From contig JBDRMG010000064.1 in assembly GCA_043812495.1 (NCBI GenBank), forward strand, positions 2,799-66,798: DNA of 64,000 nt, read 5' to 3'. The notes below the pieces were generated by a model. That model worked only from the letters and a program-made list of their open reading frames with translations, had not been told where the DNA came from and did not search any database. Shown here in pieces: positions 10,014 to 58,964 of the stretch. Both the position numbers and the translations under genes were made by a program. Numbering within the stretch: the first letter of the stretch is position 1; the number at the start of each line of letters is the position of its first letter. This DNA comes from Candidatus Omnitrophota bacterium. GTDB taxonomy: Bacteria; Omnitrophota; Gorgyraeia; Zapsychrales; JBDRMG01.

Positions 10014-10733
10014 TTAGAGGTTTTTGATAATGTCTTGTGCAAGTTTATAGCGCTCGGGCGTGCCGATATCGATAAAAGCCTCTTTGGTCTTAAAACCATA
10101 AAATTTCTTTCCGACAAGGGTCGGGAAGAATTCCGTCTCGATGGAAAAGGCATTTTTTTCCGGCATCAAATCAAAAATGTTTTTATTAAAACAGTAAATG
10201 CCGACCGAGGCAAACGGCGTTTGCGTCTGTGTGGCTTTCTCGCTAAAATTTGCGATCTCATCGTTTGGACCGAGGATGATGGAACCAAAATCTTTTTTCT
10301 CTTTGAGTTCGTGGACAGCCAAGGTCGCCAAGGCGTCTTTCTTAAGATGAAAATCAAGGAGTCTTGGATAGGGTAATCGGCAAAAACAATCACCATTGAG
10401 AACAAAAAATCGATCACTCACAATAAGCGGTTGAACGTTCTTAACAGCTCCTCCTGTGCCCAATGGCTCAATTTCTTTGGAAAATTCAATGGATAAAGAA
10501 GATTGCCTTTTCCTGCAGAACTCTTCAATCATGTCCGACTTGTAGCCGACTCCAAGAATCACTCGCCTAAATCCCTGGCGTTCCAAATACTCTAGAAGAA
10601 TTCCTAGAAAAGGCTGACCCTGAATATGCGCAAGGACTTTTGGGATGACAGGCACTTCGGGCCGCAATCTTTTTCCAAGCCCTCCGCAAAGAATGAAAAT
10701 ATCAAGCTGGGATAATATATTATGGTCTCTCAT
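10014..10733 (-). CDS. Sugar-1-phosphate nucleotidyltransferase (HddC/GmhD-like, probable heptose-1-P guanylyltransferase)
   Basis: ILCGGLGKRLRPEVPVIPKVLAHIQGQPFL is the NTP_transferase G-loop. 239 aa, short single-domain form. Confidence 0.7.
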   Translation of the reverse strand: MRDHNILSQLDIFILCGGLGKRLRPEVPVIPKVLAHIQGQPFLGILLEYLERQGFRRVILGVGYKSDMIEEFCRKRQSSLSIEFSKEIEPLGTGGAVKNVQPLIVSDRFFVLNGDCFCRLPYPRLLDFHLKKDALATLAVHELKEKKDFGSIILGPNDEIANFSEKATQTQTPFASVGIYCFNKNIFDLMPEKNAFSIETEFFPTLVGKKFYGFKTKEAFIDIGTPERYKLAQDIIKNL

Positions 10734-10897
10734 AAAGGAGTGTTGAAATTGCTTCGATTTGTGTTATGATATTTTTGCTTAATTTCTGAAACTGACTGAC
10801 TTTCTTGAAATTAAAGATCGTTTAAAGTATACAGGAAGCCGCTGCAATTTTGAAGCAAAAAATATTCTACTTCGCATAATCAATAATAAAGATAGTA

Positions 10898-10990
10898 TGT
10901 GCTTCGTAGAATATTTTCCTTTGAATAATTCTCCGAAGCCTATACCATTATGTTCAATTTATAAGGCGAAGGAGAATAAAAAGCCTTCTG
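10898..10990. mobile_element. MITE-like dispersed repeat, family A copy 1 (ends TTATTCTCCTTCGCC / GCTTCGTAGAATATT)
   Basis: About 90 nt, near-identical to the reverse complement of 33331-33420 and related to 51447-51645. It lies just upstream of the radical SAM gene start. Confidence 0.6.
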
Positions 10991-20466: not shown

Positions 20467-20603
20467 TTCTTGGGTCAATTTCTTTGAAGCAGAACGGGCA
20501 TGTAATTTCCAAAACAGTATAACTGAATTCTCCTTTAACTTCAACAATTATAAGGCGTTATCAAAGAAAGGTAAAATGACTTATGCCCAGTTTGAAATGA
20601 GCG

Positions 20604-20668
20604 AAAAAAGGGGCGCCTCGCCCGCCAAATCACTTGAGTGATTTGGCTGAGGCGGGCGCCCCTTTATC
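20604..20668 (-). terminator. Rho-independent terminator (24-bp GC-rich stem, U6 tail on the minus-strand transcript)
   Basis: GGGGCGCCTCGCCCGCCAAATCAC-TTGAG-GTGATTTGGCTGAGGCGGGCGCCCC, with the A6 run on the plus strand at 20605-20610. Confidence 0.75.
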
Positions 20669-20692
20669 GACGTTTTCTATATCAATGTTAAT

Positions 20693-20775
20693 AAGGAAGT
20701 CGATATTAGGTCTTTTTTCTCGTATAGAGAACGTATTAGCTACTTTACTATTGGTAAGGAAAAGACCAACAAAAT
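20693..20775. repeat. Hairpin repeat, family B (GGTCTTTTTTC ... GGAAAAGACC), second copy at 33748-33830
   Basis: About 80 nt, roughly 80 percent identical to 33748-33830. The stem is maintained in both copies. It lies in the 3' UTR of the 20792..21445 gene. Confidence 0.6.
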
Positions 20776-20791
20776 CTATTCTTAAATCCGA

Positions 20792-27470: not shown

Positions 27471-28432
27471 GATCGTTTTACTCCTTCGTCTTTCAAGAGT
27501 TGGCGAGTTAAATCCAAGGCGGCTTGAACGATATGTTTGGATGCGCTAAGATTCGTATGATACTCGGAATTGCGTGTTGTTTTCTGCCGTATCACTAAAA
27601 CGTCGACGTCAACGGATGTTGTTTTCTCAAGGGTTAATTTCGATGGTGAACGTTCAATCAACTGTTTTTTCTTCCGGAGGATGTCTGCCCCCTGCTTGGC
27701 AATAAACACACAATAAAGATACGGATAATCGCGACCTTCAACCGTGTTGATCGAAATCTGAATCTGTAATCCCAAAAAGAAATCCGGTGCATCAAGAATG
27801 CGGACCAAAAGCCTTGCGTCCATCGGGATGCGGCCTCCTTTTTGCGCTTCGCATGTCGAGAGCATCGGAAGCACCTGAATATCGCTGGGTTCGCGCAAAT
27901 AGTCCATGATCTTTTCGAGCAATTCGATTTTGATAATCAGTCTGTCTTTTCTCAAGAAGCTTCTTGTCCCCGTAATCCAATGAGGTGCTAAGATCAAAAG
28001 GACATCCCATGTCCAATAACTGGCCAGTCTGTGCTGGCCAAGGCCCTCAATAATCATCCAAATAATAAAACAAACGACGCCGATCAAAACAACAACTGCT
28101 ATGCCCAAAGGATTGGTGATATCAAAGGCATCCCGATCCCATCGTTCAAGCTGTTTTTGCTTTGAGCGGACCTTTTTATACTCATCGGGGGTTACTTGTT
28201 TCCATTCTTCGGTTGTAACGGTTTTCGGCTTCGCGCTATATCCCTGAATCAGGCTAAAGGCCGTTCCGAGGCCGATGAGGATTAATCCAAAAATAAAATT
28301 CAAGAAAAGCTGGATCAGAAACCCGCCGATGAACAATCCTATAATGCATTGCATGCGGGTCAAATACGGGACATCTTTAAAAAAGATGAATTTGATGTCG
28401 CCTTGGCGCTGGGGATCGGGAAAAAAGCTCAT
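27467..28432 (-). CDS. Membrane protein of unknown function (two TM hairpins, then a cytoplasmic domain)
   Basis: Start at Met23 of the listed ORF (28432). 4-nt overlap with the radical SAM gene. Confidence 0.5.
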   Translation of the reverse strand: MSFFPDPQRQGDIKFIFFKDVPYLTRMQCIIGLFIGGFLIQLFLNFIFGLILIGLGTAFSLIQGYSAKPKTVTTEEWKQVTPDEYKKVRSKQKQLERWDRDAFDITNPLGIAVVVLIGVVCFIIWMIIEGLGQHRLASYWTWDVLLILAPHWITGTRSFLRKDRLIIKIELLEKIMDYLREPSDIQVLPMLSTCEAQKGGRIPMDARLLVRILDAPDFFLGLQIQISINTVEGRDYPYLYCVFIAKQGADILRKKKQLIERSPSKLTLEKTTSVDVDVLVIRQKTTRNSEYHTNLSASKHIVQAALDLTRQLLKDEGVKRS

Positions 28433-29757
28433 GGACAGACCCCGTGGGCAGAAGCCATGATTTCTCGATAGCCGACCTGACGGAAATACAAAGGGCATCC
28501 TCCATTACATATAGCCAGATAATTGCACTCTTGGCATAGGGCATGGGCAAAACGTTTTTCTTGGAAATAGGCGAACGCGGGGCTTTTCCAAATCTCTTTA
28601 AACCGTCCTTCCATCTCGAGAATGTTTCCCATCGGCTGCGGAAAGCTAGAACAAGGAAGAATATCACCGTTGGGCGCTATACTCAGAAGTCCGTCGCAAG
28701 CCGCGCAACCTTTGTTGCCAAGCCCATGAATAATCGGATTAAAAATACATAGGGGCGTCGGGGAATACCACATAAACTCAAGATTTTTTTCTTGTGCCGC
28801 ATGAGAAATTTCTAAAACAATATCACCAATTTCTGAATAGGAAACAAAAACATGATCCAGGCGGGACAAGGCCGAACCTTCGGGCATCAGCATATTCATG
28901 GAAAATTTATTAAAGCCAAGCTGAGCGATCAGATCAAGCAGGCCCAAAAGATCATTTTTATTCAGCCCGGAAATCGTGGTATTGGTATGCACCCTGATTC
29001 CCGCTTCTCGAAGATTCTTTAATCCCTCAAGCGTTAATTCAAAAGCACCTTTTGAGCCAACAATCTGATCATGCACAAGCGCTGTCCCTGCTTCCAGGCT
29101 GACTTGTGCCGAATCCAGCCCCGCCCCCTGAAAGTCCTTGGCTGTGTTTGCGTCAATCAGCGTCGCGTTGGTAATCAGGTTTGTCCATAGACCGAGTTCT
29201 TTGGCAAAACGGATCAACTCAGGCAGGTCTTGACGTAATGTTGGCTCCCCTCCGGTAAAGCTCACGGAAGGAATCTCGATTTCTTTTCGGATCATCGAAA
29301 GAATTTTCTTTAACGTATTCGTCGGTAATTCCGCGGCGGAATCTTTTTTGCTGCAGCCGCAGGACGCATAACAAAACTGGCATTCCAGATTGCATCGATA
29401 GGTAATGGCTATTTCGCTTAAGACGGGCAAGGTATTAAAGGGAAGATGAAAAGGTATTTTCTCAACGGCTAGCCGCGCATCCTGTTCATGAAAACACCCT
29501 TTGAGCATGGCACGAAGGTCGCAGAAAAAATGGTGAAGATCGCGAGCCACGCTTTCGCGGTCGGGATAACCGTCAACGATCGCGTAAATGCTCTGACCCT
29601 GAAGAAGATGTTTGAGGATTTTCACGGCTTGCTCGTTTAGCTTATGGGCCTCATTGGGAATTTTGATTAAAAGATGATCCTCTTCTCTCACATAAATGTA
29701 GGGTTTCACATTTTTGATGTATTCATCCACCCAATGTAATTGTCGATAATAATCCAT
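28429..29757 (-). CDS. Radical SAM/SPASM-domain enzyme with about 110-aa N-terminal RRE-like extension (peptide/protein maturase-like)
   Basis: ITYRCNLECQFC (CxxxCxxC) sits at about residue 122 rather than near the N-terminus. The C-terminal cysteine cluster CAACDGLLSIAPNGDILPCSS ... CQECNYLAICNGGCPLYF is SPASM-like. The N-terminal KILKHLLQGQSIYAIVDGYPDRESVARDLHHFFCDL resembles PqqD-like recognition elements. Confidence 0.75.
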   Translation of the reverse strand: MDYYRQLHWVDEYIKNVKPYIYVREEDHLLIKIPNEAHKLNEQAVKILKHLLQGQSIYAIVDGYPDRESVARDLHHFFCDLRAMLKGCFHEQDARLAVEKIPFHLPFNTLPVLSEIAITYRCNLECQFCYASCGCSKKDSAAELPTNTLKKILSMIRKEIEIPSVSFTGGEPTLRQDLPELIRFAKELGLWTNLITNATLIDANTAKDFQGAGLDSAQVSLEAGTALVHDQIVGSKGAFELTLEGLKNLREAGIRVHTNTTISGLNKNDLLGLLDLIAQLGFNKFSMNMLMPEGSALSRLDHVFVSYSEIGDIVLEISHAAQEKNLEFMWYSPTPLCIFNPIIHGLGNKGCAACDGLLSIAPNGDILPCSSFPQPMGNILEMEGRFKEIWKSPAFAYFQEKRFAHALCQECNYLAICNGGCPLYFRQVGYREIMASAHGVCP

Positions 29758-29759
29758 GG

Positions 29760-31406
29760 TTAATGACCGCTGCTAACGCAGGCGCCATGACAAGCCCCAT
29801 GGCAGGCTGAATGACACGCGGAATGACACGCCGAATGACAGGCTGAATGACAGGCATCATGGCACACATTTTGCATAAACGGACCTTCATAACATACCGA
29901 TGTGTTGCGAAACGTCGAGAAATTGTCCTTGAGGTTAGGGATGTTTCCTTCAACCGTTTTTCCGACATCCTGACTTTTCCTGTAATCATATCGATCGGCG
30001 TGGGTTCGCCCATAATAGTGATGATGGTATCCGCCCCAATAAAACGCGTCCTCATCGTTTTTCTTGTAAAGATCGCCCATCTGTTTTTTGTAATATTTCT
30101 TAGTTGCCTCGAGGTCGCAATCCCAAGTCTTCTGCTCAAGACCCGAAGCAATGGTTTTAAACAACAAATTGACTGGATTTTCTTGGATACGTCCGTCGGC
30201 TTCAATGGCACTATAAAGAATGCTCTCGTAAGAGTCATTGCTTCCCATAACGCCGGCAACGCGTTCAACGCGCAAAGGGTCCTCGCTTAGTATTTTAATA
30301 ATCCCCCGGCGTTCCATATTTTGAACAATCAATCCCATGAGAACCGAAAGAGGAATATCCAGAAGAAGGCCCGCTTCAATGGCGTTAAGAGTTTTGCAGA
30401 TTTTCCCTTTCTGCCGGAAGGATCCCACTTGAATCTTGGGAGGAACCCACTCATCCCCTTGCCACTGAATCTTGGAAATCCCGTCCTGGGCAATGAGCAT
30501 TGACTGATGCTTGCGCGTCATCACAAAAAGAGGGAAAAACCCCAAGAATAGTGCGCCAAAGAAAACAATGATAGCGATCGTGACATAATCAAACGGCATT
30601 TCGGCCAAAACACTGCCCGGAAAAAATCGGTTCAAAAGGTAGGATTCCTTCGCTTTTTTTAAATCGCTTTTTTGCCATGGCGCTTTTCCGGCAATGGTGG
30701 AAAGCAGAAAATAAGAAGCATCCGCATAGGTTTGGATCTGAAAATGATAGCGGCTATTAAGATTATTGCGATGGAATCTGACCGTCAGAATATTTTCTCC
30801 TTGAGCATTCTTCACGGAAGGATAATCAATCAGGTAGCGGTCATTGACATACTTTTCCGTCATGAATTTACTCTTTTCCAAATCTTCCTTGGAAACAGAT
30901 TCCGAAGAGAGGGAAATCGGATAATGAACCGTGACTGTTTCGTGCTCAAGGGAATTGTTCCATTGAACCGGCGCCCAGTTAAAAACCGCCAACCGCCCGT
31001 GAGGGCTGTCGGTCAGGGTCACCTGGCCGCTTTGCTGCAAATCCGTTTGATAGCGAAAGAAATAGGTCAGCTCACCGTCTTGAAAGGAGCGGCCTTGGGA
31101 GAGGATAATATCGTATTTCTTATTTGAGAGTTTCTTGATATCGAGAGCGTAGCGGTTACCGTTTTGGTCGAGGGCATAGGCATTCTGATCGTCAAAGCGC
31201 GGTCGCTCTACAAATCCTTCAAAATAAAAACCGTGAAGATTCGCATTCTGGCATACCCAGCGAACAGAATAGGAAATTTGCGCCTTGCCGTCTTTGTCCA
31301 AAACAACATCCGTTTCGACCCAGCGCAGTTTAAATCCATCGGCCCAAGCATGCGAAGGGAATACAAGGCAAAAAAACAATGCGAAGAAAACAAATATTCT
31401 TTTCAT
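29760..31406 (-). CDS. DUF2207-like membrane protein with C-terminal Cys/His repeat tail (ACHS)n
   Basis: Architecture, in order: signal peptide (MKRIFVFFALFFCLVFPSHAWA), an ectodomain of about 270 aa, a TM helix (VTIAIIVFFGALFLGFFPLFVMT), a cytoplasmic domain, and the tail NVCHDACHSACHSACHSACHSACHGACHGACVSSGH. Stop is 3 nt before the radical SAM start. Confidence 0.6.
   Translation of the reverse strand: MKRIFVFFALFFCLVFPSHAWADGFKLRWVETDVVLDKDGKAQISYSVRWVCQNANLHGFYFEGFVERPRFDDQNAYALDQNGNRYALDIKKLSNKKYDIILSQGRSFQDGELTYFFRYQTDLQQSGQVTLTDSPHGRLAVFNWAPVQWNNSLEHETVTVHYPISLSSESVSKEDLEKSKFMTEKYVNDRYLIDYPSVKNAQGENILTVRFHRNNLNSRYHFQIQTYADASYFLLSTIAGKAPWQKSDLKKAKESYLLNRFFPGSVLAEMPFDYVTIAIIVFFGALFLGFFPLFVMTRKHQSMLIAQDGISKIQWQGDEWVPPKIQVGSFRQKGKICKTLNAIEAGLLLDIPLSVLMGLIVQNMERRGIIKILSEDPLRVERVAGVMGSNDSYESILYSAIEADGRIQENPVNLLFKTIASGLEQKTWDCDLEATKKYYKKQMGDLYKKNDEDAFYWGGYHHHYYGRTHADRYDYRKSQDVGKTVEGNIPNLKDNFSTFRNTSVCYEGPFMQNVCHDACHSACHSACHSACHSACHGACHGACVSSGH
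29775..29860. repeat. In-frame 12-nt tandem repeat (GAATGACA[CG]G[CG]N), about 6 units, encoding the ACHS tail
   Basis: Seen directly: gccatgacaagcc ccatggcaggct gaatgacacgcg gaatgacacgcc gaatgacaggct gaatgacaggca. Confidence 0.8.
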
Positions 31407-31444
31407 CGCGCATATTGACTCTTGAGAAAAGATCGCACTCAACA

Positions 31445-31475
31445 AACAAGGACAACCCGCGGAAAGTGGATTGTC
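31445..31475 (-). terminator. Hairpin (AAGGACAA ... TTGTCCTT) followed by a U-rich tract on the minus-strand RNA; possible terminator or attenuator between the U32 operon and the DUF2207 operon
   Basis: Minus-strand sequence aaggacaatccactttccgcgggttgtccttgtttgtt, about 35 nt upstream of the DUF2207 ATG. Confidence 0.35.
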
Positions 31476-31752
31476 CTTATTTTTATTCGACATGGTCGTT
31501 CGCACAAGGTTATTTTACAACCGCAAAAAATGTAAAACAAGAAATATTGGTTTAATTTAGTCGATCGATGAGTCCTAAAAAAAGACCCACGGGGGAGGCA
31601 TGGGGACTTTCTTGATGATCTGTAAAGCGGTGTCAAGAACGCGAAACGGAAGATTCAAAAGAGCGCAACCGCTTTGCGTAAAGCATAACAGGAGAATCAG
31701 AATGATCCAGAGATGTTTCTTCAAAATCTTTTTTGAGATTCTTCGATGCACT

Positions 31753-32100: not shown

Positions 32101-33299
32101 AGAAATACTTTATCTTTGGGCCGAACGACAAAAGGAAGTTTGACGCCTACCGGTGAGCCTTTGAGCGCTTCCTCAATGCTTCGGTGATTGTCTTGCAATT
32201 CATCGGCGGTCGTCTGATAAGCCGGCGTATTCTTGCCGATAAACAAAATCTGATCTCCTCTTTTGAGAGAGGCATTTCTTATCATTATATCCGCAACAAA
32301 GATCTTTTTATAGAACTTTCTCACTTCTCCTAAGAAGACTTTCTCGTGCGTATGTTCCAAATTTCTGGCCAAAACTTTTTTGGGTTCGCCAAAATAAAAT
32401 CCGTTTGAAAAACCGCGGTTGTAAACGGACCTGAGTTCCTCTTTGAGCTTCTTTTTAAGCTGAGAGGTGAATTGTCCTTGATTAAAAGCATCCAGCGCCT
32501 GGCGATAAACAGATGTCGTCACACCGACATATTCCGGGGAACGCATTCGGCCTTCTATTTTGAAAGCATCGATGCCGGAGTCGATCAGTTCATCAAGAAA
32601 ATCAATCGTACACAAATCTTTTGGACTTAAGAGATAATCTTGGCCAAGAATGTATTCGGATTCACGGTCCATATCCTTGATTGTGAATTCTCTTCGGCAC
32701 GGCTGCAGACAATCGCCTTTGTTGGCGGACCGTCCGAAAGCATCTTGCGACAAAAAACACCGGCCGGAAATACTTACGCACATGGCGCCGTGAATAAAAG
32801 CCTCAATCTGACAGTGAATTTTCTCTTTCTTCAATTCCCGAACTATTTGTTGAATGTCGGCAAGTGTGCATTCTCGAGCGAGAACAATTCTTTTGACACC
32901 CAAGTGAGCATAAAACCGAACAGATTCGGTATTGGATACGCTTTCCTGCGTCGAAAGATGAATACGAAGCTTCAGTTTTTTGGCTAGAGAAAATACCGCT
33001 TTGTCCCACAAAATCACAGCATCGACTTTTGCCCGCTTGGCCTCCTGAAGAGCTTTTTCAACTTTTCCTAATTCTTGATTCATCACAATCACATTCAAGG
33101 CCAAATACCCTTTTCGTTTTTGTACGCGCAAGAAAGCCATCACTTTCTTGATTTCGTAAAGATCAAAATTCGCGGCCTGATGGCGCATATTTAAACCCTT
33201 AATGCCGAAATAAACGCTGTCGGCGCCATTCTCGACGGCTGCGCGCAAAGAAGGCCAATCGCCTGCCGGGGATACTAATTCTGGTTTTATCTTTCTCAT
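32067..33299 (-). CDS. Peptidase U32 family protein (PrtC/collagenase-like; the family also includes O2-independent hydroxylases)
   Basis: MRKIKPELVSPAGDWPSLRAAVENGADSVYFG is the characteristic U32 start, and the conserved E-x-F-x-H-G-A-x-C region is present. Confidence 0.8.
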   Translation of the reverse strand: MRKIKPELVSPAGDWPSLRAAVENGADSVYFGIKGLNMRHQAANFDLYEIKKVMAFLRVQKRKGYLALNVIVMNQELGKVEKALQEAKRAKVDAVILWDKAVFSLAKKLKLRIHLSTQESVSNTESVRFYAHLGVKRIVLARECTLADIQQIVRELKKEKIHCQIEAFIHGAMCVSISGRCFLSQDAFGRSANKGDCLQPCRREFTIKDMDRESEYILGQDYLLSPKDLCTIDFLDELIDSGIDAFKIEGRMRSPEYVGVTTSVYRQALDAFNQGQFTSQLKKKLKEELRSVYNRGFSNGFYFGEPKKVLARNLEHTHEKVFLGEVRKFYKKIFVADIMIRNASLKRGDQILFIGKNTPAYQTTADELQDNHRSIEEALKGSPVGVKLPFVVRPKDKVFLWKKKQGISSR

Positions 33300-33330
33300 T
33301 TGATCGTATATCCAAAGTTTCCGCTTTTAT

Positions 33331-33420
33331 TCTCCTTCGCCTTACCATTACAACATAATGGTACAGGCTTCGGAGAATTATTCTGAAGAGAATATTCTAC
33401 GAAGCATATACCGTTATTTA
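33331..33420. mobile_element. MITE-like repeat, family A copy 2 (reverse orientation relative to copy 1)
   Basis: Its reverse complement matches 10898-10990 over about 85 nt with few mismatches. Immediately upstream of the U32 gene. Confidence 0.6.
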
Positions 33421-33559
33421 CATTGCTTATGCGAAGTAGAATAAAATCTTTGAGCAATTCCCTGGCCGTCTCAAATTGCTCTTCATCCACCTTGATTCTG
33501 GCCGGCGCAACCAGGGGCCTCACCTGCAGGAAATTCTCTCCTTCGATAAAATAGCGAAT

Positions 33560-33830
33560 ATCATTCGCTTCAAAAAGCGATTTATTGGCCTTTTCCTTAA
33601 AAAAGACTTAGCGGTAGGCCAATTTTGACCTTTTTATTTAAGAAAAAAGGCCAAATATTGACTTCCACTAATGCTTTTATTGAGAAGAGGTCAATAATGA
33701 AGGCGATATCTCCGGGATTATTGGCTTTTTCTTTATTAAAGAAACGGTGGAAGCCAATATTAGGTCTTTTTCCTCATATAGAGAGAATATTAATGACTGT
33801 TCCATTAATAAGGAAAAGACCAATAAACGT
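33560..33830. repeat. Repeat-dense non-coding island: several degenerate copies and orientations of the family B motif, including the full hairpin copy at 33748-33830
   Basis: The motifs are ttattggccttttcctta, aaaaaaggccaaatattgacttcc, ggaagccaatattaggtctttttcctc and aaggaaaagaccaataaacg. No convincing ORF across 33300-33948. Confidence 0.55.
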
Positions 33831-33948
33831 TGCGAGAATTTCCTTAAAAATCTTTTGAGCCATGGGCATGACAAAAGGCAACCGCTTTTTCGCGTGTTGC
33901 CTTTCCTTACCTTTTCTTCATCTAATTTCTCAGCCGCCTGATCCAAGC

Positions 33949-35286
33949 TCAAATATCCTTGAGGGCAAGATTCGAGGGAGACTTTTCGATCGTTTCGTTA
34001 AAGGATTTGAGGCTAGCCATGAGCTTATCCACTTCTTTAGACTCAGCGATAGGAATCGTGTCAATTCCCTTCCAGTCTAATATATTAAGGACGCTTTGAA
34101 TGGTTAAAGGGCCGATATCTCTGGCCGGTTGATACCCGATGATCTTATTGTTATCTAATTTGACTTCCGATAGAATTCCGGCTTCGGTTAATTCAAAAAG
34201 GATTTGACGCACCAGGCGGATCGGAATTTCCAACACATGAGAAATCTCCTGGGCGGTCCAAGGTTTTTGGGCCTGGGAAAAATTCTTAATACATAAGTGG
34301 GCGATTTGCAAGGACAATAGCCTCTTAAAAGAATGGCTGACCTTCAGGCAATCCGGCTCAAATTCATAGGTTTCGACATTCTGGTCTGCAAAGGAAATCT
34401 CCGCGCCCAAAAGAACGATAATCCAGCTGATCTGCAACCACATTAAAAAAAGCGGCAAGGCTGCGAAACTTCCGTAAATCGCACCGTATTTCGCTACGCC
34501 GACTTGGAAATATATATAAACCCATTGGACAATCTGGTAGATTGTGCCGCCGATGATGCCGCCGATCAAGCCCGATTTGAAATTAACTTTCGTATTCGGC
34601 ATAAAAATATAAATGAATGAAAAAAGCACCCAAAGCACGGCGTACGGTAGAAGTTTTAAGAAAATCATGATAACCGGACTGAAAGCCCCCAAGAACTCGA
34701 TTTTCCGCATCACCAGCGTGACTTGACTTGCGATCATAACCGTTACACTGCTTGACATAATCAACAAAATAGGGCAAATCAGCATGATGGACAGATAATC
34801 GCTGAATTTACGGCCGATGCTTCTGCCTTTCTTGATCCCCCAAATGTCGTTAAAGGAACTCTCAATATTTCCCAGCACCTTGATCACGGTCCAGAATAAA
34901 ACAGCTACGCCGATGCCGGCGATCAAACCGCCTTTTGTATTTTCCAGAAAACTATTCGCAAAGCCGATAATGTAAGTAACAACTTCTTCCTGGCCGGGCA
35001 GTCTTGTGACGAGCTGATTTTCAAGCATATTCTCAAAACCAAAACCCTTAGCTATACCAAAAGCCATCGCGACTAAAGGAACGATCGACAAAAGTGAATA
35101 AAATGTCAAAGCGGATGCGCGCAATTGGCATTTATCTTCGTCGAATCCCCGTATAGCCACAAGAACAACTCTTAATTGCCGGATCAAAAATGATCTCGGC
35201 CGGGAAAGCTTGCTGGTTCGAATCCGCCAGATATCCGTTGTTAAGAAATCAATAATGGCCGGAATGATTTTCTTTTTTTCTGCCAT
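33949..35286 (-). CDS. YihY/BrkB-family inner membrane protein with C-terminal winged-helix-like domain
   Basis: FLIRQLRVVLVAIRGFDEDKCQLRASALTFYSLLSIVPLVAMAFGIAKGFGFE is the YihY signature. Six TM helices. Confidence 0.8.
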   Translation of the reverse strand: MAEKKKIIPAIIDFLTTDIWRIRTSKLSRPRSFLIRQLRVVLVAIRGFDEDKCQLRASALTFYSLLSIVPLVAMAFGIAKGFGFENMLENQLVTRLPGQEEVVTYIIGFANSFLENTKGGLIAGIGVAVLFWTVIKVLGNIESSFNDIWGIKKGRSIGRKFSDYLSIMLICPILLIMSSSVTVMIASQVTLVMRKIEFLGAFSPVIMIFLKLLPYAVLWVLFSFIYIFMPNTKVNFKSGLIGGIIGGTIYQIVQWVYIYFQVGVAKYGAIYGSFAALPLFLMWLQISWIIVLLGAEISFADQNVETYEFEPDCLKVSHSFKRLLSLQIAHLCIKNFSQAQKPWTAQEISHVLEIPIRLVRQILFELTEAGILSEVKLDNNKIIGYQPARDIGPLTIQSVLNILDWKGIDTIPIAESKEVDKLMASLKSFNETIEKSPSNLALKDI

Positions 35287-49911: not shown

Positions 49912-49945
49912 TCGACCCCTCATCCTGAGCGAAGCGAAGGATCTC
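49912..49945. repeat. Left 30-bp inverted repeat flanking the GIY-YIG ORF (partner at 50237-50270)
   Basis: CTCATCCTGAGCGAAGCGAAGGATCTC versus the reverse complement of GAGATCCTTCCTCGCTTCGCTCGTCAGGATGAG. Confidence 0.7.
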
Positions 49946-50207
49946 TAAGCAAATCATCATAGAGATCTTTCCAATCTTTGTTCTTTGATTCTATTAATGT
50001 TATTTTTCTTTCCCGTTTCCAACCTTTAACTTGTCTTTCTCTATCCTTTGCTTTATCAATAGGTTCTAATATTTCATAATAAATTAGTCGATTAACACAA
50101 TACTTCTGTGCAAATCCTTTTTGATGCCCTTTTTGGTGTTCCTTAACTCGCTTTTTAAGATCTTTTGTTGAACCTGTGTATAAAACATTATTTCTTTTAT
50201 TTGTCAA
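49920..50207 (-). CDS. GIY-YIG nuclease-domain protein (UPF0213-like), non-ATG (TTG) start or N-terminally eroded
   Basis: YFYILTNKRNNVLYTGSTKDLKKRVKEHQKG. The YFYIL strand lies upstream of the TTG, in frame, with no ATG/GTG available before the upstream stop. Confidence 0.6.
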   Translation of the reverse strand: MTNKRNNVLYTGSTKDLKKRVKEHQKGHQKGFAQKYCVNRLIYYEILEPIDKAKDRERQVKGWKRERKITLIESKNKDWKDLYDDLLRDPSLRSG

Positions 50208-50236
50208 AATGTAAAAATAACCTAATTGCCTATATC

Positions 50237-50270
50237 CATTTGAGATCCTTCCTCGCTTCGCTCGTCAGGA
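50237..50270. repeat. Right inverted repeat partner of 49912-49945
   Basis: See left repeat. Confidence 0.7.
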
Positions 50271-50306
50271 TGAGCAGTCGTAGAGCTTAAAAAGCTCTCC
50301 GACTGC

Positions 50307-51446: not shown

Positions 51447-51645
51447 TTATTCTCCTTCGCCGAATACCCTCTATCCCAACATCCTGTCGTGACTGAAGGA
51501 ACAAAGTCGAAGGAGAACCCTACGAAGCCAAAGGCGAAAGTTCTGCTTCGCAAAATATTTGTCATATTTTGCTTCGCAGAATTCTTCGAAGCTTCATGCG
51601 AAGAAGAACACTTTGGCGAAGTAGGGTATTCGGCTTCGAAGAATG
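51447..51645. mobile_element. MITE-like element, family A relative, with terminal inverted repeats (TTCTCCTTCGCCGAATACCCT ... AGGGTATTCGGCTTCGAAGAA)
   Basis: The left end is identical to the other family A copies (TTATTCTCCTTCGCC). Internal GCTTCG/CGAAGC palindromes. Intergenic, between the malK-like gene and accD. Confidence 0.55.
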
Positions 51646-55761: not shown

Positions 55762-55848
55762 AACGCAGATCTTCGCAGATTGCACGCAGATGATCGCAGA
55801 TTAACATCTGCGAGAATCTGCGTTTGATCTGCGTTAATCTGCGTTCAA
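55762..55848. repeat. Palindromic array of four CGCAGAT heptamers, then four ATCTGCG heptamers (dnaK-dnaJ intergenic)
   Basis: aaacgcagat cttcgcagat tgcacgcagat gatcgcagat taac atctgcgag aatctgcgtt tgatctgcgtt aatctgcgttca. Confidence 0.75.
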
Positions 55849-55855
55849 ATGCCTT

Positions 55856-57782
55856 TTAGCTCTTCTCATTCTCCGCCTTAAAATCCGCGTCAATGACGTC
55901 GTCTTTTCCTTTGTCTTTTGGCTGTTCTTGCGAAGAGGTCCCGCTTGGGCCCTCCTGGTCGCCTGTTTGCTGTTGAGATTGCTGACCGGCCTGTTGCTGC
56001 TGTGCGGAGGCCTTATAAATTTCTTCCGCCAATTTATGACTAGCCTTGGTCAAAGATTCCGACGTTGATTTTATCTTTTGGACGTCTTTGGATTTAATCG
56101 CCTCTTTCAAAGCGTTTAATTCCACTTCAATCGCTCCCCTGTCCTGGTTGGAAACCTTGTCGCCGTATTCTTTCAAGGATTTTTCCGTTGCATAGGCAAG
56201 GGCATTGGCCTGATTGACGACCTCAACCTCTTCTTTTTTCTTTTTGTCTTCTTCGGCGTATTGTTCGGCCTGCTTGACCATCTTCTGAATTTCTTCTTCG
56301 GACAGCTTTTTGGGCGCGGTAATTTTAATCGACTGCTCTTTACCTGTTCCCTTATCCTTGGCGGACACATGAACGATACCATCCGCGTCGATATCAAAGC
56401 CGACTTCGATTTGCGGAATCCCGCGCTGAGCAGGAGGCAGTCCCACTAAATCAAAACGACCGAGCTCGATGTTGTCATTGGCCATTTGTCTCTCGCCCTG
56501 AAGAACGCGAATCGTAACCGCCGGTTGATTATCCTCGGCGGTTGAAAAGATCTGGCTCTTTTTGGTGGGAATCGTCGTATTTCGTTCAATCAATTTCGTA
56601 AAGACTCCCCCAAGCGTTTCGATTCCTAAAGAAAGCGGCGTAACATCCAAAAGCAAGACTTCCTTAGCGTCTCCTTTGATGATCGACGCCTGAATCGCCG
56701 CGCCTAAAGCCACGCATTCCATAGGATCGATGCCGCGCTCAATTTTCTGGCCGATTTCCTTTTCCACAAAGGCCTGAACAATGGGCATGCGCGTCGGACC
56801 GCCGACAAGGATAATCCGATCAATCTTGATATCGCTACCGAGCTTGGCTGAGGCATCTTTGATGGCTTGCTTAATGGGACCGCGGCAGCGGTCGACGATC
56901 GATGCGATTAAACTTTCCAGCTTGGCTCGATCAATGTTCATGGTCAAATGCTTTGGACCGGAGGCATCAGCTGTGATAAAAGGCAGATTGATGTCCGTCG
57001 ATACGGTACTTGAAAGTTCAATCTTTGCTTTCTCGGCTCCTTCTCTTAATCGTTGAAAGGCCATTTTATCTTTGGAAAGATCGATGCCGTTTTCTTTCTT
57101 AAATTCATTCACAATGTGATCGATGAGCACATTATCCATGTCGGTGCCGCCTAGCTGCGTATCGCCGTTGGTGGATAAAACTTCGAATGTCGCGGCCTTA
57201 TGCGAGTCATCCCATCCCATTTCAAGGACGGTCACATCAAGGGTTCCGCCGCCAAAGTCAAAAACCATGATCTTTTGCTCTTTACCGGCTTTGTCCAAGC
57301 CATAGGCCAGGCAGGCTGCTGTGGGTTCATTGATAATGCGCAAAACCTTTAAGCCCGCGATCTCCCCTGCATCTTTCGTGGCCTGCCGTTGATTGTCATT
57401 GTAATACGCGGGGACCGTGACAACGGCTTCTTCGACTTTGTCGCCTAAGAATTTCTCGGCATCCGCTTTGATCTTTTGTAAAATAAACGCGCTGATTTGC
57501 TGCGGCGTAAATTCCTTGCCGCCGGCCTTGAATTTAAAATCGGTCCCCATTTTGCGTTTGGCGGCATAAATCGTATTTTTCCGAATTGATCGCCGCCTGG
57601 CGCCTGGCGGGTTCACCGACAAGACGCTGACCGTCTTTGGTAAAGGCCACAAAGGACGGAAATGCTTTACCGCTTGCGACACCCGCGCCTTCGGCGGATG
57701 GGATAATCGTCGGGCGACCGCCTTCCATGATAGCGGCCGCTGAATTGGAAGTTCCTAAATCAATACCGATGACTCGTGCCAT
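55856..57782 (-). CDS. dnaK: Chaperone DnaK, reading frame broken by a 1-nt indel in an A5 run (plus-strand TTTTT at 57576-57580)
   Basis: The N-terminus [22 protein letters not shown] ... AINSE is in ORF 57534..57782. The rest ([11 protein letters not shown] ... through the C-terminal EEVD-like end) is in ORF 55856..57682. Removing one A restores AINSENTIY, the canonical DnaK sequence. Confidence 0.9.
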
Positions 57783-57802
57783 AATTTTACCCTCCCTTGC
57801 AA

Positions 57803-57847
57803 CCGCAGATATCGCAGATCTTAGATAGATCCGCAGATATCGCAGAT
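57803..57847. repeat. Direct CGCAGAT heptamer repeats immediately upstream of dnaK
   Basis: ccgcagatatcgcagat cttagatagat ccgcagatatcgcagat. Confidence 0.65.
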
Positions 57848-57850
57848 GTT

Positions 57851-58237
57851 CTAGTAATTATTTACCATTCTCTTTATTTTTAATCTATTCTCTGCAAAAT
57901 TTAAAATTAAGCCAACTTTCTTACCCGTTGTTTTCAGATATGATAGCATCTGAGCGTAATGAATATTGCCTAACTCTGAAACACTCTTTAGCTCAATTAT
58001 TACTTCATCTTCAACTAAAAAATCTACTCGCTGGTAACCTAATTCTACTGTTTTATAATTAACCTTGATTTCTGCTTGTTCCTCAAATCTAATCTTATTT
58101 TTCTGAAATTCATAGGCCATTGCTTTCTCATAAATTTTTTCAACAAAACCTGGGCCTAAATTATTGTGTATCTCAATGCCTATTCCAATTATTTTCTCGG
58201 TTAATTTATCAAGTTCATTTCTGTTCATCTGCGTCAT
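57851..58237 (-). CDS. GxxExxY-family protein
   Basis: 128 aa. [14 protein letters not shown] and [27 protein letters not shown] are the GxxExxY/PD-(D/E)xK-like signature. Inserted between grpE and dnaK; its 5' end overlaps grpE by 14-23 nt. Confidence 0.7.
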
Positions 58238-58964
58238 CGGCGTTTACTTTATCTGCGTCATCGGCGTTTACTTTATCTGCGTCATCGGCGTTTACTTTAT
58301 CTGCGTCATCTGCGGTTGCATTATCTGCGTCATCGGCGTTTACTTTATCTGCGTCATCTGCGGTTGCATTATCTGCGTCATCTGCGGTTGCATTATCTGC
58401 GTCATCGGCGTTTACTTTATCTGCGTCATCTGCGGTTGCAAGCTTTGTGGTTGCCACTTTCACTTTACTCGTGCGCACCACGCGATCACCCAACAGATAC
58501 CCCTTCTGAAATTCTTCCACAATCGTACCCTCGGGGTGCTGGTCTGTCCCCTCTTGCATCAAGGCTTCGTGCAAATGCGGATCAAATGGTTTGCCTTTGG
58601 CCTCGATGGGCTTCACATTATTTTTCTTAAGCATGTCATAGACATGCGCCATGACCATTTCGATTCCTTTGAGGAAAGCCGTATAGTCCTGATGATTGGC
58701 CTTGGCCGCCTCGACGGATCTTTCTAAATCGTCAAGGATGTTCAAAAATTCAGTGACGAGTCCTTCATTGGCGTATTTGATGAATTCGAACTTTTCGCGC
58801 TCCATGCGCTTGCGCGCGTTTTCGAATTCGGCGTAAAGACGGATAAATTTGTCTTTATACTCACCGGCCTCTTGTTTAAGCTCTTCGAGTTCCGATTCCT
58901 TGACGGAAACCATCTTCTCTTTTTGCGGCTTGGTTTCTTTATCGTGTTGATTCTCTTTTGTCAT
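58215..58964 (-). CDS. grpE: Nucleotide exchange factor GrpE with C-terminal ADDAD(K/N)(V/A)(N/T) octapeptide repeats
   Basis: Conserved GrpE core (FENARKRMEREKFEFIKYANEGL ... GKPFDPHLHEAL ... GYLLGDRVVRTSKVKV), followed by about 70 aa of repeats. Confidence 0.85.
   Translation of the reverse strand: MTKENQHDKETKPQKEKMVSVKESELEELKQEAGEYKDKFIRLYAEFENARKRMEREKFEFIKYANEGLVTEFLNILDDLERSVEAAKANHQDYTAFLKGIEMVMAHVYDMLKKNNVKPIEAKGKPFDPHLHEALMQEGTDQHPEGTIVEEFQKGYLLGDRVVRTSKVKVATTKLATADDADKVNADDADNATADDADNATADDADKVNADDADNATADDADKVNADDADKVNADDADKVNADDADEQK
58226..58445. repeat. Tandem 24-nt repeat, about 9 units (CTGCGTCATCGGCGTTTACTTTAT / CTGCGTCATCTGCGGTTGCATTAT), encoding the GrpE tail
   Basis: Read directly; two unit variants alternate. 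Confidence 0.85.

Follow-up and report, generated by a model that had tools for sequence, protein, structure and literature searches.

In a 64,000-nt stretch of contig JBDRMG010000064.1 from a Candidatus Omnitrophota bacterium (hereafter the window), three intergenic loci carry inverted pairs of short hairpins built around CTTCG boxes. These loci are probably non-autonomous, internally deleted copies belonging to a family of small mobile elements assembled from hairpin modules, the gene-bearing form of which would encode a single GIY-YIG nuclease of about 80 amino acids (aa) of the SLX1/UPF0213 type and would insert flush with the 3' end of tRNA and transfer-messenger RNA (tmRNA) genes, on the sense strand. 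[quoted passage not shown] That idea was broadly right, as copies were found in at least ten other metagenome-assembled genomes (MAGs) and at more than 120 metagenome loci and some orthologous sites are empty, but the partner gene is another than the one proposed and the architecture is one of hairpin modules.

The repeated unit was defined in a census of 236 modules across 1.27 Mb of loci collected outside the window by pattern matching; these loci are designated by L-numbers and the taxonomy of their MAGs follows the labels as deposited. A module is a 26-56-nt hairpin with a 7-bp stem, ATTCT-N-C / G-N'-AGAAT, around two CTTCG boxes (the T-unit); its reverse complement with two CGAAG boxes is termed the A-unit. 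Since N and N' are complementary in 214 of the 236 modules (G:C 71, C:G 68, A:T 61, T:A 14), it is the hairpin module that is repeated. Modules are used singly, as doublets or nested, and there is no fixed 90-nt element. Doublets almost always run T-unit then A-unit (53 of 54, with one in the order A then T), in agreement with the polarity of the two ends of the inserts bearing an open reading frame (ORF) described below. Box 1 is the inverted copy of box 4, as the entire T-unit is of the A-unit, and they constitute terminal inverted repeats.

In the window, copies 1 and 2 form a real inverted pair, although not the pair of about 85 nt and 90% identity first reported: it extends over 119 nt at 83-84% identity. 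The terminus TTATTCTCCTTCGCC is found at all three loci, as is a 12-nt box in two forms, GCTTCG-N-AGAAT and GCGAAG-N-AGAAT, which in copies 1 and 2 are ordered ATTCTaCTTCGC ... GCTTCGtAGAAT, then ATTCTcCGAAGC ... GCGAAGgAGAAT. The third locus had been counted as a further copy of the same kind, but it is composite and has only the 12-nt boxes in common with the other two. With at most one mismatch, the 12-mers GCTTCGNAGAAT and GCGAAGNAGAAT occur 12 and 9 times in the window (about 2.2 expected), and their exact matches are confined to the three loci. A stricter module search of the window returned exactly six hairpin modules, that is three doublets, all running T-unit then A-unit, and none in 20 shuffles. 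All three loci do lie between genes.

Alignment folding with RNAalifold paired box 1 with box 2 in one hairpin and box 3 with box 4 in the next, with compensatory changes in support, and short natural variants (L015, L039 and L014) retain each hairpin with an unrelated inner stem. The two halves of the 114-nt class of doublets are also complementary to each other, with covariation at some of the between-half pairs, and single copies fold best as one long hairpin by RNA minimum free energy. The RNA folding that had been suggested as a check returned stable hairpins for copy 1 (-31.9 kcal/mol, z -5.1), copy 2 (-44.3 kcal/mol, z -6.9) and copy 3 (z -5.2). The covariation backs a conserved fold, and DNA hairpins would yield an equal signal.

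To survey the family beyond the window, one genome per GTDB species was scanned for the inner box pair. Among the 57 loci that it returned, Omnitrophota MAGs (at least 11) and MAGs labelled as Planctomycetes-Verrucomicrobia-Chlamydiae (PVC) were strongly over-represented, several of them with multiple loci; 19 loci have the identical four boxes, order and N bases. Four-box doublets fall into size classes of 99 nt and 112-115 nt, the difference being a 15-nt linker, and occur in at least ten Omnitrophota-type MAGs (by label), several per genome, in both orientations and at varied intergenic sites. A covariance model built on 21 doublets retrieved its doublet set plus more divergent copies, and a metagenome scan for single modules returned at least 120 loci. 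Copies 1 and 2 share 83% identity, against 85-86% with copies in other MAGs, thus there is no genome-specific clustering. Neither the module nor the mini GIY-YIG protein was found in plasmid, phage and viral-contig collections, and a search for contigs encoding the window proteins gave no matches.

Among the matches listed for the pooled loci, 46 tRNA and tmRNA genes, of all kinds, have a T-unit directly at the 3' end, always on the sense strand; in L031 and L040 it begins after the discriminator base, and where CCA is encoded it begins after that. In at least 13 T...A inserts at tRNA ends, 9-21 nt (typically 16) of the tRNA 3' end are directly repeated behind the closing A-type hairpin; as parsed for the tRNA-Gln gene of L133, the repeat covers the 3' strand of the T-stem, the 3' strand of the acceptor stem, the discriminator and CCA. 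Second insertions in tandem, into the direct repeat, were observed in L135 and L071. The mirror case was also found, namely doublets at tRNA 5' ends (L007 3563-3715 at tRNA-Phe and L100 6124-6262 at tRNA-Gly) flanked by 11- and 16-nt direct repeats, respectively, of the tRNA 5' end.

Inserts at tRNA ends are either short (61-106 nt) or long (324-366 nt), and the long ones contain a single ORF of about 80 aa on the tRNA strand. These ORFs surfaced only through the analysis of direct repeats; an all-against-all BLAST of ORFs of at least 90 aa from the approximately 1.27 Mb of loci found no recurrent neighbour gene, and missed them because they are shorter than its cut-off. A jackhmmer search identified 24 such ORFs in the collected loci, nearly all adjoining modules, and the Pfam GIY-YIG domain PF01541 was detected in all seven module-linked ORFs tested (37-71 bits). 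The predicted proteins lack a separate DNA-binding domain and have their own C-terminal motif, YLKSGSGxAF. In L039, a doublet with boxes of the window type stands between a tmRNA gene and a GIY-YIG ORF, and modules stand on both sides of the ORF in L010, which comes from an Omnitrophica MAG. In a reverse test, homologues of the L010 protein were searched and contigs were taken by protein identity only, with modules ignored. All seven distinct loci obtained are situated 70-260 nt downstream of a tRNA or tmRNA gene on the same strand, and at all seven a CTTCG/CGAAG hairpin begins after CCA, in canonical form in an Elusimicrobiota MAG and with GC-rich stem variants in a Verrucomicrobiota MAG and in other contigs.

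The closest solved structures to the mini GIY-YIG proteins are the UPF0213 protein 1ZG2 (E 0.045) and SLX1, both weak matches, which places them nearest to the minimal GIY-YIG (URI) nucleases UPF0213/YhbQ and SLX1; for these known nucleases, in contrast, no mobility, tRNA linkage or flanking hairpins have been described. SLX1 cuts branched and hairpin DNA, an activity that would fit recognition of the hairpins. Only the N-terminal 35 residues match a group I intron endonuclease model in NCBIfam, below its cut-off. The family resembles free-standing GIY-YIG homing endonucleases such as the Seg proteins of phage T4 in being a selfish gene inserted beside conserved genes, including tRNA genes. 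However, Seg proteins exceed 200 aa and have a DNA-binding domain, whereas the ORFs found here amount to the catalytic domain only, and Seg genes have no terminal hairpins, target duplication or non-autonomous derivatives. SegB, located in the T4 tRNA gene cluster, is mentioned in PMC13096335.

At sites between protein-coding genes, the presence of modules differs among relatives. L049 and L053 are syntenic with the window at 47.6-55.7 kb, with amino-acid identities of 62-82% and 38-70%, respectively. The spacer between accD and the ABC ATPase gene, which holds copy 3 in the window, is empty in both, while L049 carries a doublet between two genes whose window counterparts overlap by 4 nt. The neighbouring spacer between ABC and GGDEF genes contains a GIY-YIG ORF in the window, two T-units and no ORF in L053, and nothing in L049. 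Filled and empty sites were also found in the pairs L056 versus L019 and L008 versus L054, and no module is present in four loci with orthologues of the radical SAM gene next to copy 1 (59 kb in total).

A mechanism can be proposed on these grounds. The full element would begin with a T-unit and close with an A-unit, and its ends would thus form a terminal inverted repeat. Its insertion would duplicate about 16 nt of the target, from the 3' strand of the T-stem through the 3' end, presumably by staggered nicks made by the 80-aa enzyme followed by host repair. Loss of the ORF would leave T+A doublets like those of the window, and such doublets may then have spread to, or decayed in place within, ordinary intergenic spacers, copy 3 being a putative nested insertion. 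The nuclease would accordingly be the mobilising enzyme, it may recognise the hairpin or a cruciform DNA, and the window copies may have moved by the same route as the gene-bearing elements. More tentatively, the family might represent a new class of mobile element, with an autonomous unit of about 330 bp whose sole gene encodes an 80-aa structure-specific GIY-YIG nuclease. Such a unit could target the acceptor-stem end of tRNA and tmRNA genes by one nick at the T-loop border and another about 16 nt away, after position 73/76; the tRNA promoter could drive its expression, and it could give rise to hairpin-doublet MITEs throughout the compact genomes of Omnitrophota and other uncultured phyla.

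Several observations weigh against this proposal. In L039, L163 and L182 the ORF comes after a T+A doublet and not between T and A, and because it follows the doublet in several loci the hairpins could be a leader or a target rather than the ends of an element. We know of no 80-aa nuclease that could accomplish strand transfer acting alone. The GIY-YIG ORF of the window belongs to a different subfamily, and its hairpin stems read ATCCT, not ATTCT. Every doublet has a T...A flank, and 42 of 54, those of the window included, show no target duplication beyond it, so that transposition of the doublets themselves is only putative; the target-site duplications sought by the initial annotation are accordingly missing from the window copies, and longer flanking direct repeats (10-17 nt) accompany only six of the 54. 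The module frequencies are biased, since the loci were collected by pattern matching. Finally, at the orthologous tRNA-Gly/gpsA site of L031 and L040 the boxes are kept and the variable parts have diverged, with GpsA only 53% identical; this conservation also fits selection for a host function, as does the finding that the window copies are no closer to each other than to copies elsewhere.

Such a function is the main rival to the element model. The hairpins would be transcribed for processing, stability, termination, tRNA 3' maturation or translational control by way of the Shine-Dalgarno-like GGAG sequestered in hairpin B, selection would retain the modules, which would not move, and the GIY-YIG genes would merely home in on them. 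The strictly sense orientation flush with tRNA 3' ends speaks for it, as do modules within tRNA clusters (L073, L077 and L040), the covarying stems, the box conservation at the gpsA site, a transcript that reaches the T-unit first from either strand, and an ATG or GTG 2-12 nt past box 4 (GAAGGAGAAT) in many loci. Nevertheless, only a subset of tRNAs has the module (none in L013, L033 and L054, one of four in L031), and orthologous protein-gene sites are empty in relatives. The orientation relative to the downstream gene is 12:7 for doublets and 15:15 for single modules, and the downstream genes are unrelated to each other. Direct repeats of the target surround T...A inserts, and tandem re-insertion occurs. 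L048 retains the pairing and loses GGAG, the non-Watson-Crick N:N' pairs are mostly A·C on the T-unit strand and not G·U, and no Rfam family matched the element at gathering and E-value thresholds. We therefore consider a purely host-functional RNA unlikely. The two readings are not exclusive, as 3' processing would have to survive the landing of an element at the end of a tRNA.

That the loci are REP elements or REP doublets forming hairpins (REPINs), mobilised by a REP-associated tyrosine transposase (RAYT) of the IS200/IS605-like Y1 type, is very improbable. The likeness to the REPIN/RAYT systems of Enterobacteria and Pseudomonas is considerable: short imperfect palindromes (here 26-56 nt) occur singly, as doublets or clustered, intergenic and in multiple copies, they persist across related species, and they are tied to one small nuclease-type gene. 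Inverted doublets fold as one long hairpin with compensatory changes between the halves, the nesting of copy 3 resembles bacterial interspersed mosaic elements (BIMEs), and GTAG occurs within box 2. However, the "GTAG" coincides with the variable N', at which all four bases occur, so the conserved GTAG/GTGG head of REPINs is missing. The search for RAYTs, with approximate IS200, IS608 and YafM query sequences, gave one RAYT-like ORF (L040 7241-7753, minus strand, in an Omnitrophota MAG; Pfam Y1_Tnp, 24.7 bits); it lies 3 kb from the nearest module, is unflanked by modules and belongs to a family ubiquitous across phyla, and it was rejected as a partner. No Y1 transposase was found in the window or adjoining any of about 240 modules in the collected loci. 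The IS200/IS605-type partner proposed in the initial annotation thus gives way to the GIY-YIG nuclease, which is not an HUH enzyme. Moreover, the flush position at tRNA 3' ends, the duplications of about 16 nt, neither of which is known from REP/RAYT systems, and the retention of the ATTCT stem and CTTCG boxes across very divergent genomes set this family apart. IS200/IS605 elements and their PATE-type derivatives are similar in being very small, with hairpin ends read as structure and non-autonomous palindromic derivatives; they differ in using a Y1 HUH enzyme, producing no target duplication, having ends that are not inverted copies and measuring at least 600-700 bp.

An origin as a classical terminal-inverted-repeat MITE of an insertion sequence with a DDE transposase elsewhere in the genome (e.g. 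IS630/Tc1-like, with a TA target) is likewise very unlikely. As in MITEs, the doublets are small (99-119 nt, commonly about 100-115), noncoding, dispersed between genes, differently present in relatives and bounded by inverted termini (box 1 versus box 4), and since all are T...A-flanked a parsing as TA-TTCT...AGAA-TA is possible. The T...A flank could, however, equally be an additional pair of the stem, internal boxes 2 and 3 match the termini in conservation, and the clear duplications in the family are of 10-17 nt, not TA. Longer elements with the same ends do exist, the 324-366-nt T...A inserts, but they encode only the predicted GIY-YIG nuclease, and no recurrent transposase-like ORF was found in the approximately 1.27 Mb of loci or in the window. 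Correia elements (CREE/NEMIS of Neisseria) and other bacterial MITEs are comparable noncoding repeats of about 100-155 bp with inverted termini, placed in spacers near gene starts or ends, forming hairpins in transcripts and lacking a transposase of their own. In contrast, Correia elements occur in one genus, have 26-bp terminal inverted repeats and a TA duplication, and have no known autonomous form, whereas here the termini are themselves hairpins, internal boxes are present and ORF-bearing relatives exist.

The remaining candidates were rejected. The refuting possibility that the copies are fragments of a coding gene family is not realised, as the mechanical ORF through copies 1 and 2 is interrupted elsewhere in the family by stops or frameshifts, with variability lowest at the third codon position. 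An intrinsic terminator was dropped, as a scan of copies 1 and 2 called no terminator-like site, copy 1 lies between divergent gene starts and modules occur inside tRNA clusters. A riboswitch or leader was suggested by the Shine-Dalgarno (SD)-like box 4 and by all three window copies pointing at a gene start; it was rejected as the main explanation because of the 12:7 orientation, the unrelated downstream genes and the empty orthologous sites, and the fixed orientation before a defined gene set that marks a cis-regulatory RNA is not seen. A DNA uptake sequence and an integron attC site were dropped on density, spacing and context.

The full-text papers searched, which include few from subscription journals so that earlier work is possible, describe neither the boxes nor mini GIY-YIG elements linked to tRNAs, and the family, present in Omnitrophota and other uncultured bacteria, appears previously undescribed there. 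Omnitrophota and neighbouring candidate phyla have small gene-dense genomes with an almost unexplored noncoding repertoire, and the family provides a sequence-defined and structure-supported module that marks intergenic boundaries in many of them. It could also confound gene calling, because ORFs cross the element, upstream genes borrow its stop (upstream ORFs often terminate 23 nt within it) and downstream genes use its SD-like GGAG. Three things are newly connected by these data, namely MITE- or REPIN-like hairpins, exact tRNA 3' ends and a minimal GIY-YIG nuclease. Should the nuclease mobilise the hairpins, this would be a new bacterial chemistry of transposition or homing performed by a very compact structure-specific nuclease; on the more tentative proposal of a new element class, no smaller self-encoding transposable element would be known, and among bacterial elements it would be the first that a GIY-YIG enzyme drives. 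If the hairpins serve the host instead, they would constitute a new phylum-wide RNA processing signal.

The features of the window are listed in Table 1. Copy 1 is flanked by two divergent gene starts, at 10733 (NTP-transferase, minus strand) and 11005 (B12-radical SAM, plus strand), and its hairpin B includes the SD-like GGAG. It had been thought that copy 1 may carry the promoter of the radical SAM gene; in a sigma-70-like consensus scan of that strand no promoter was found inside the copy, the sole match (10743-10770) lying upstream of the element. A U32 peptidase gene starts at 33299 on the minus strand, and copy 2 is located 29 nt upstream of it. The neighbours of copy 3 are accD (ends 51727) and a MalK-like ABC ATPase gene (starts 51410), and its arms enclose additional box fragments besides the compact doublet. 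The absence of a transposase, as first reported, holds for the classical families, since transposase and recombinase models matched none of 60 large window ORFs (several of which have no Pfam match at all), but a GIY-YIG nuclease ORF lies near copy 3. This ORF and the hairpins beside it are possibly a relative of the three doublets and are a candidate partner only.

Table 1. Hairpin-module loci and the GIY-YIG locus of the window (positions counted from its first letter).
Feature	Position	Strand	Remarks
Doublet copy 1, entire element	10863-10981	+	covariance model 130.2 bits
Copy 1 T-unit (hairpin A)	10864-10912	+	ATTCTAC TTCGC ... GCTTC GTAGAAT; N:N' = A:T
Copy 1 linker, 15 nt, ATTTTCCTTTGAATA	10913-10927	+	in 114-nt size class, missing from 99-nt class
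Copy 1 A-unit (hairpin B)	10928-10977	+	ATTCTCC GAAGC ... GCGAAG GAGAAT; N:N' = C:G
Doublet copy 2, entire element	33325-33443	-	covariance model 130 bits
Copy 2 T-unit	33394-33442	-	
Copy 2 A-unit	33329-33378	-	
Copy 3 composite locus	51447-51645	+	large outer hairpin module, further modules nested inside
Copy 3 outer module, left 22-nt arm ATTCTCCTTCGCCGAATACCCT	51449-51470	+	
Copy 3 outer module, right 22-nt inverted arm AGGGTATTCGGCTTCGAAGAAT	51623-51644	+	
Copy 3 nested compact doublet	51540-51609	+	covariance model 43.5 bits, E 3e-5
Units of the nested doublet	T-unit 51540-51582, A-unit 51581-51609	+	
Window GIY-YIG ORF	49920-50207	-	PF01541, E 6e-15; 1.2 kb from copy 3
Possibly related element: GIY-YIG ORF with inverted hairpins	49920-50271	-	
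Hairpins flanking the window GIY-YIG ORF	ATCCTGACGAGCGAAGCGAGGAAGGAT 50245-50271, ATCCTTCGCTTCGCTCAGGAT 49922-49942		ATCCT stems, GCGAAGC/GCTTCGC cores

Other GIY-YIG genes were encountered in the collected loci. Two ORFs of the other subfamily have unusual positions, one inside 23S rRNA-like sequence in L176 (12985-13302) and one in L113 (6032-6337) with an incomplete 5' copy of tRNA-Pro on one side and the intact tRNA-Pro on the other; both suggest that insertion into stable-RNA genes extends to other minimal GIY-YIG genes. In L182-L185, an island of GIY-YIG and Fic genes that is 98.6% identical between different genomic contexts has around it, within 3 kb, up to four occurrences (at about 1117, 1264, 1769 and 3118) of TATTTAGTTTGCGTCCTCTACTCTCCCCGTGATTTGAACTC, a repeat at least 40 nt long. 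A 16-nt target duplication at the element of L183 and L185 was dropped, as the "repeat" is part of the sequence of at least 40 nt present four times in 3 kb. Furthermore, perfect 17-nt palindromes, ATTCTGCTTCGCAGAAT and ATTCTGCGAAGCAGAAT, form tandem or paired arrays in L001, L026 (Chitinophagaceae MAG) and L032 (Aenigmatarchaeota MAG). They contain the GCGAAGC mini-hairpin motif on the complementary strand. The phyla to which these contigs are binned are unrelated, and either mis-binning or a wider distribution could be the reason.

The window contains additional repeats. A second family with ATCTGCG motifs is present as a 24-nt tandem array (58176-58487) and as copies dispersed elsewhere (2483-2583 and 55776-55864); an inverted pair of it (57796-57819 and 58419-58442) surrounds a PD-(D/E)XK_3 nuclease ORF (57851-58237), possibly a further small nuclease gene that has repeats of its own. 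Another repeat, about 120 nt long with 75% identity (20664-20790 versus 33718-33840), includes GGTCTTTTTTC...CTATTGGTAAGGAAAAGACC, resembling a decayed A-type module, and is adjoined by a 33-nt perfect-like palindrome (20602-20669). Between a BrkB/YihY-like gene and copy 2, about 500 nt (33445-33950) hold no ORF longer than 91 aa, and Rfam gave only weak miRNA-like hairpin matches there. A 12-nt tandem repeat (CAGGCNNAATGA-like, about eight copies, 29779-29874) is found at the junction of the ORFs 28429-29757 and 29760-31505. On the minus strand, 22129-22487 matches the Rfam cspA thermoregulator with 78.8 bits against a gathering threshold of 78 and lies upstream of an 80-aa cold-shock-like ORF.

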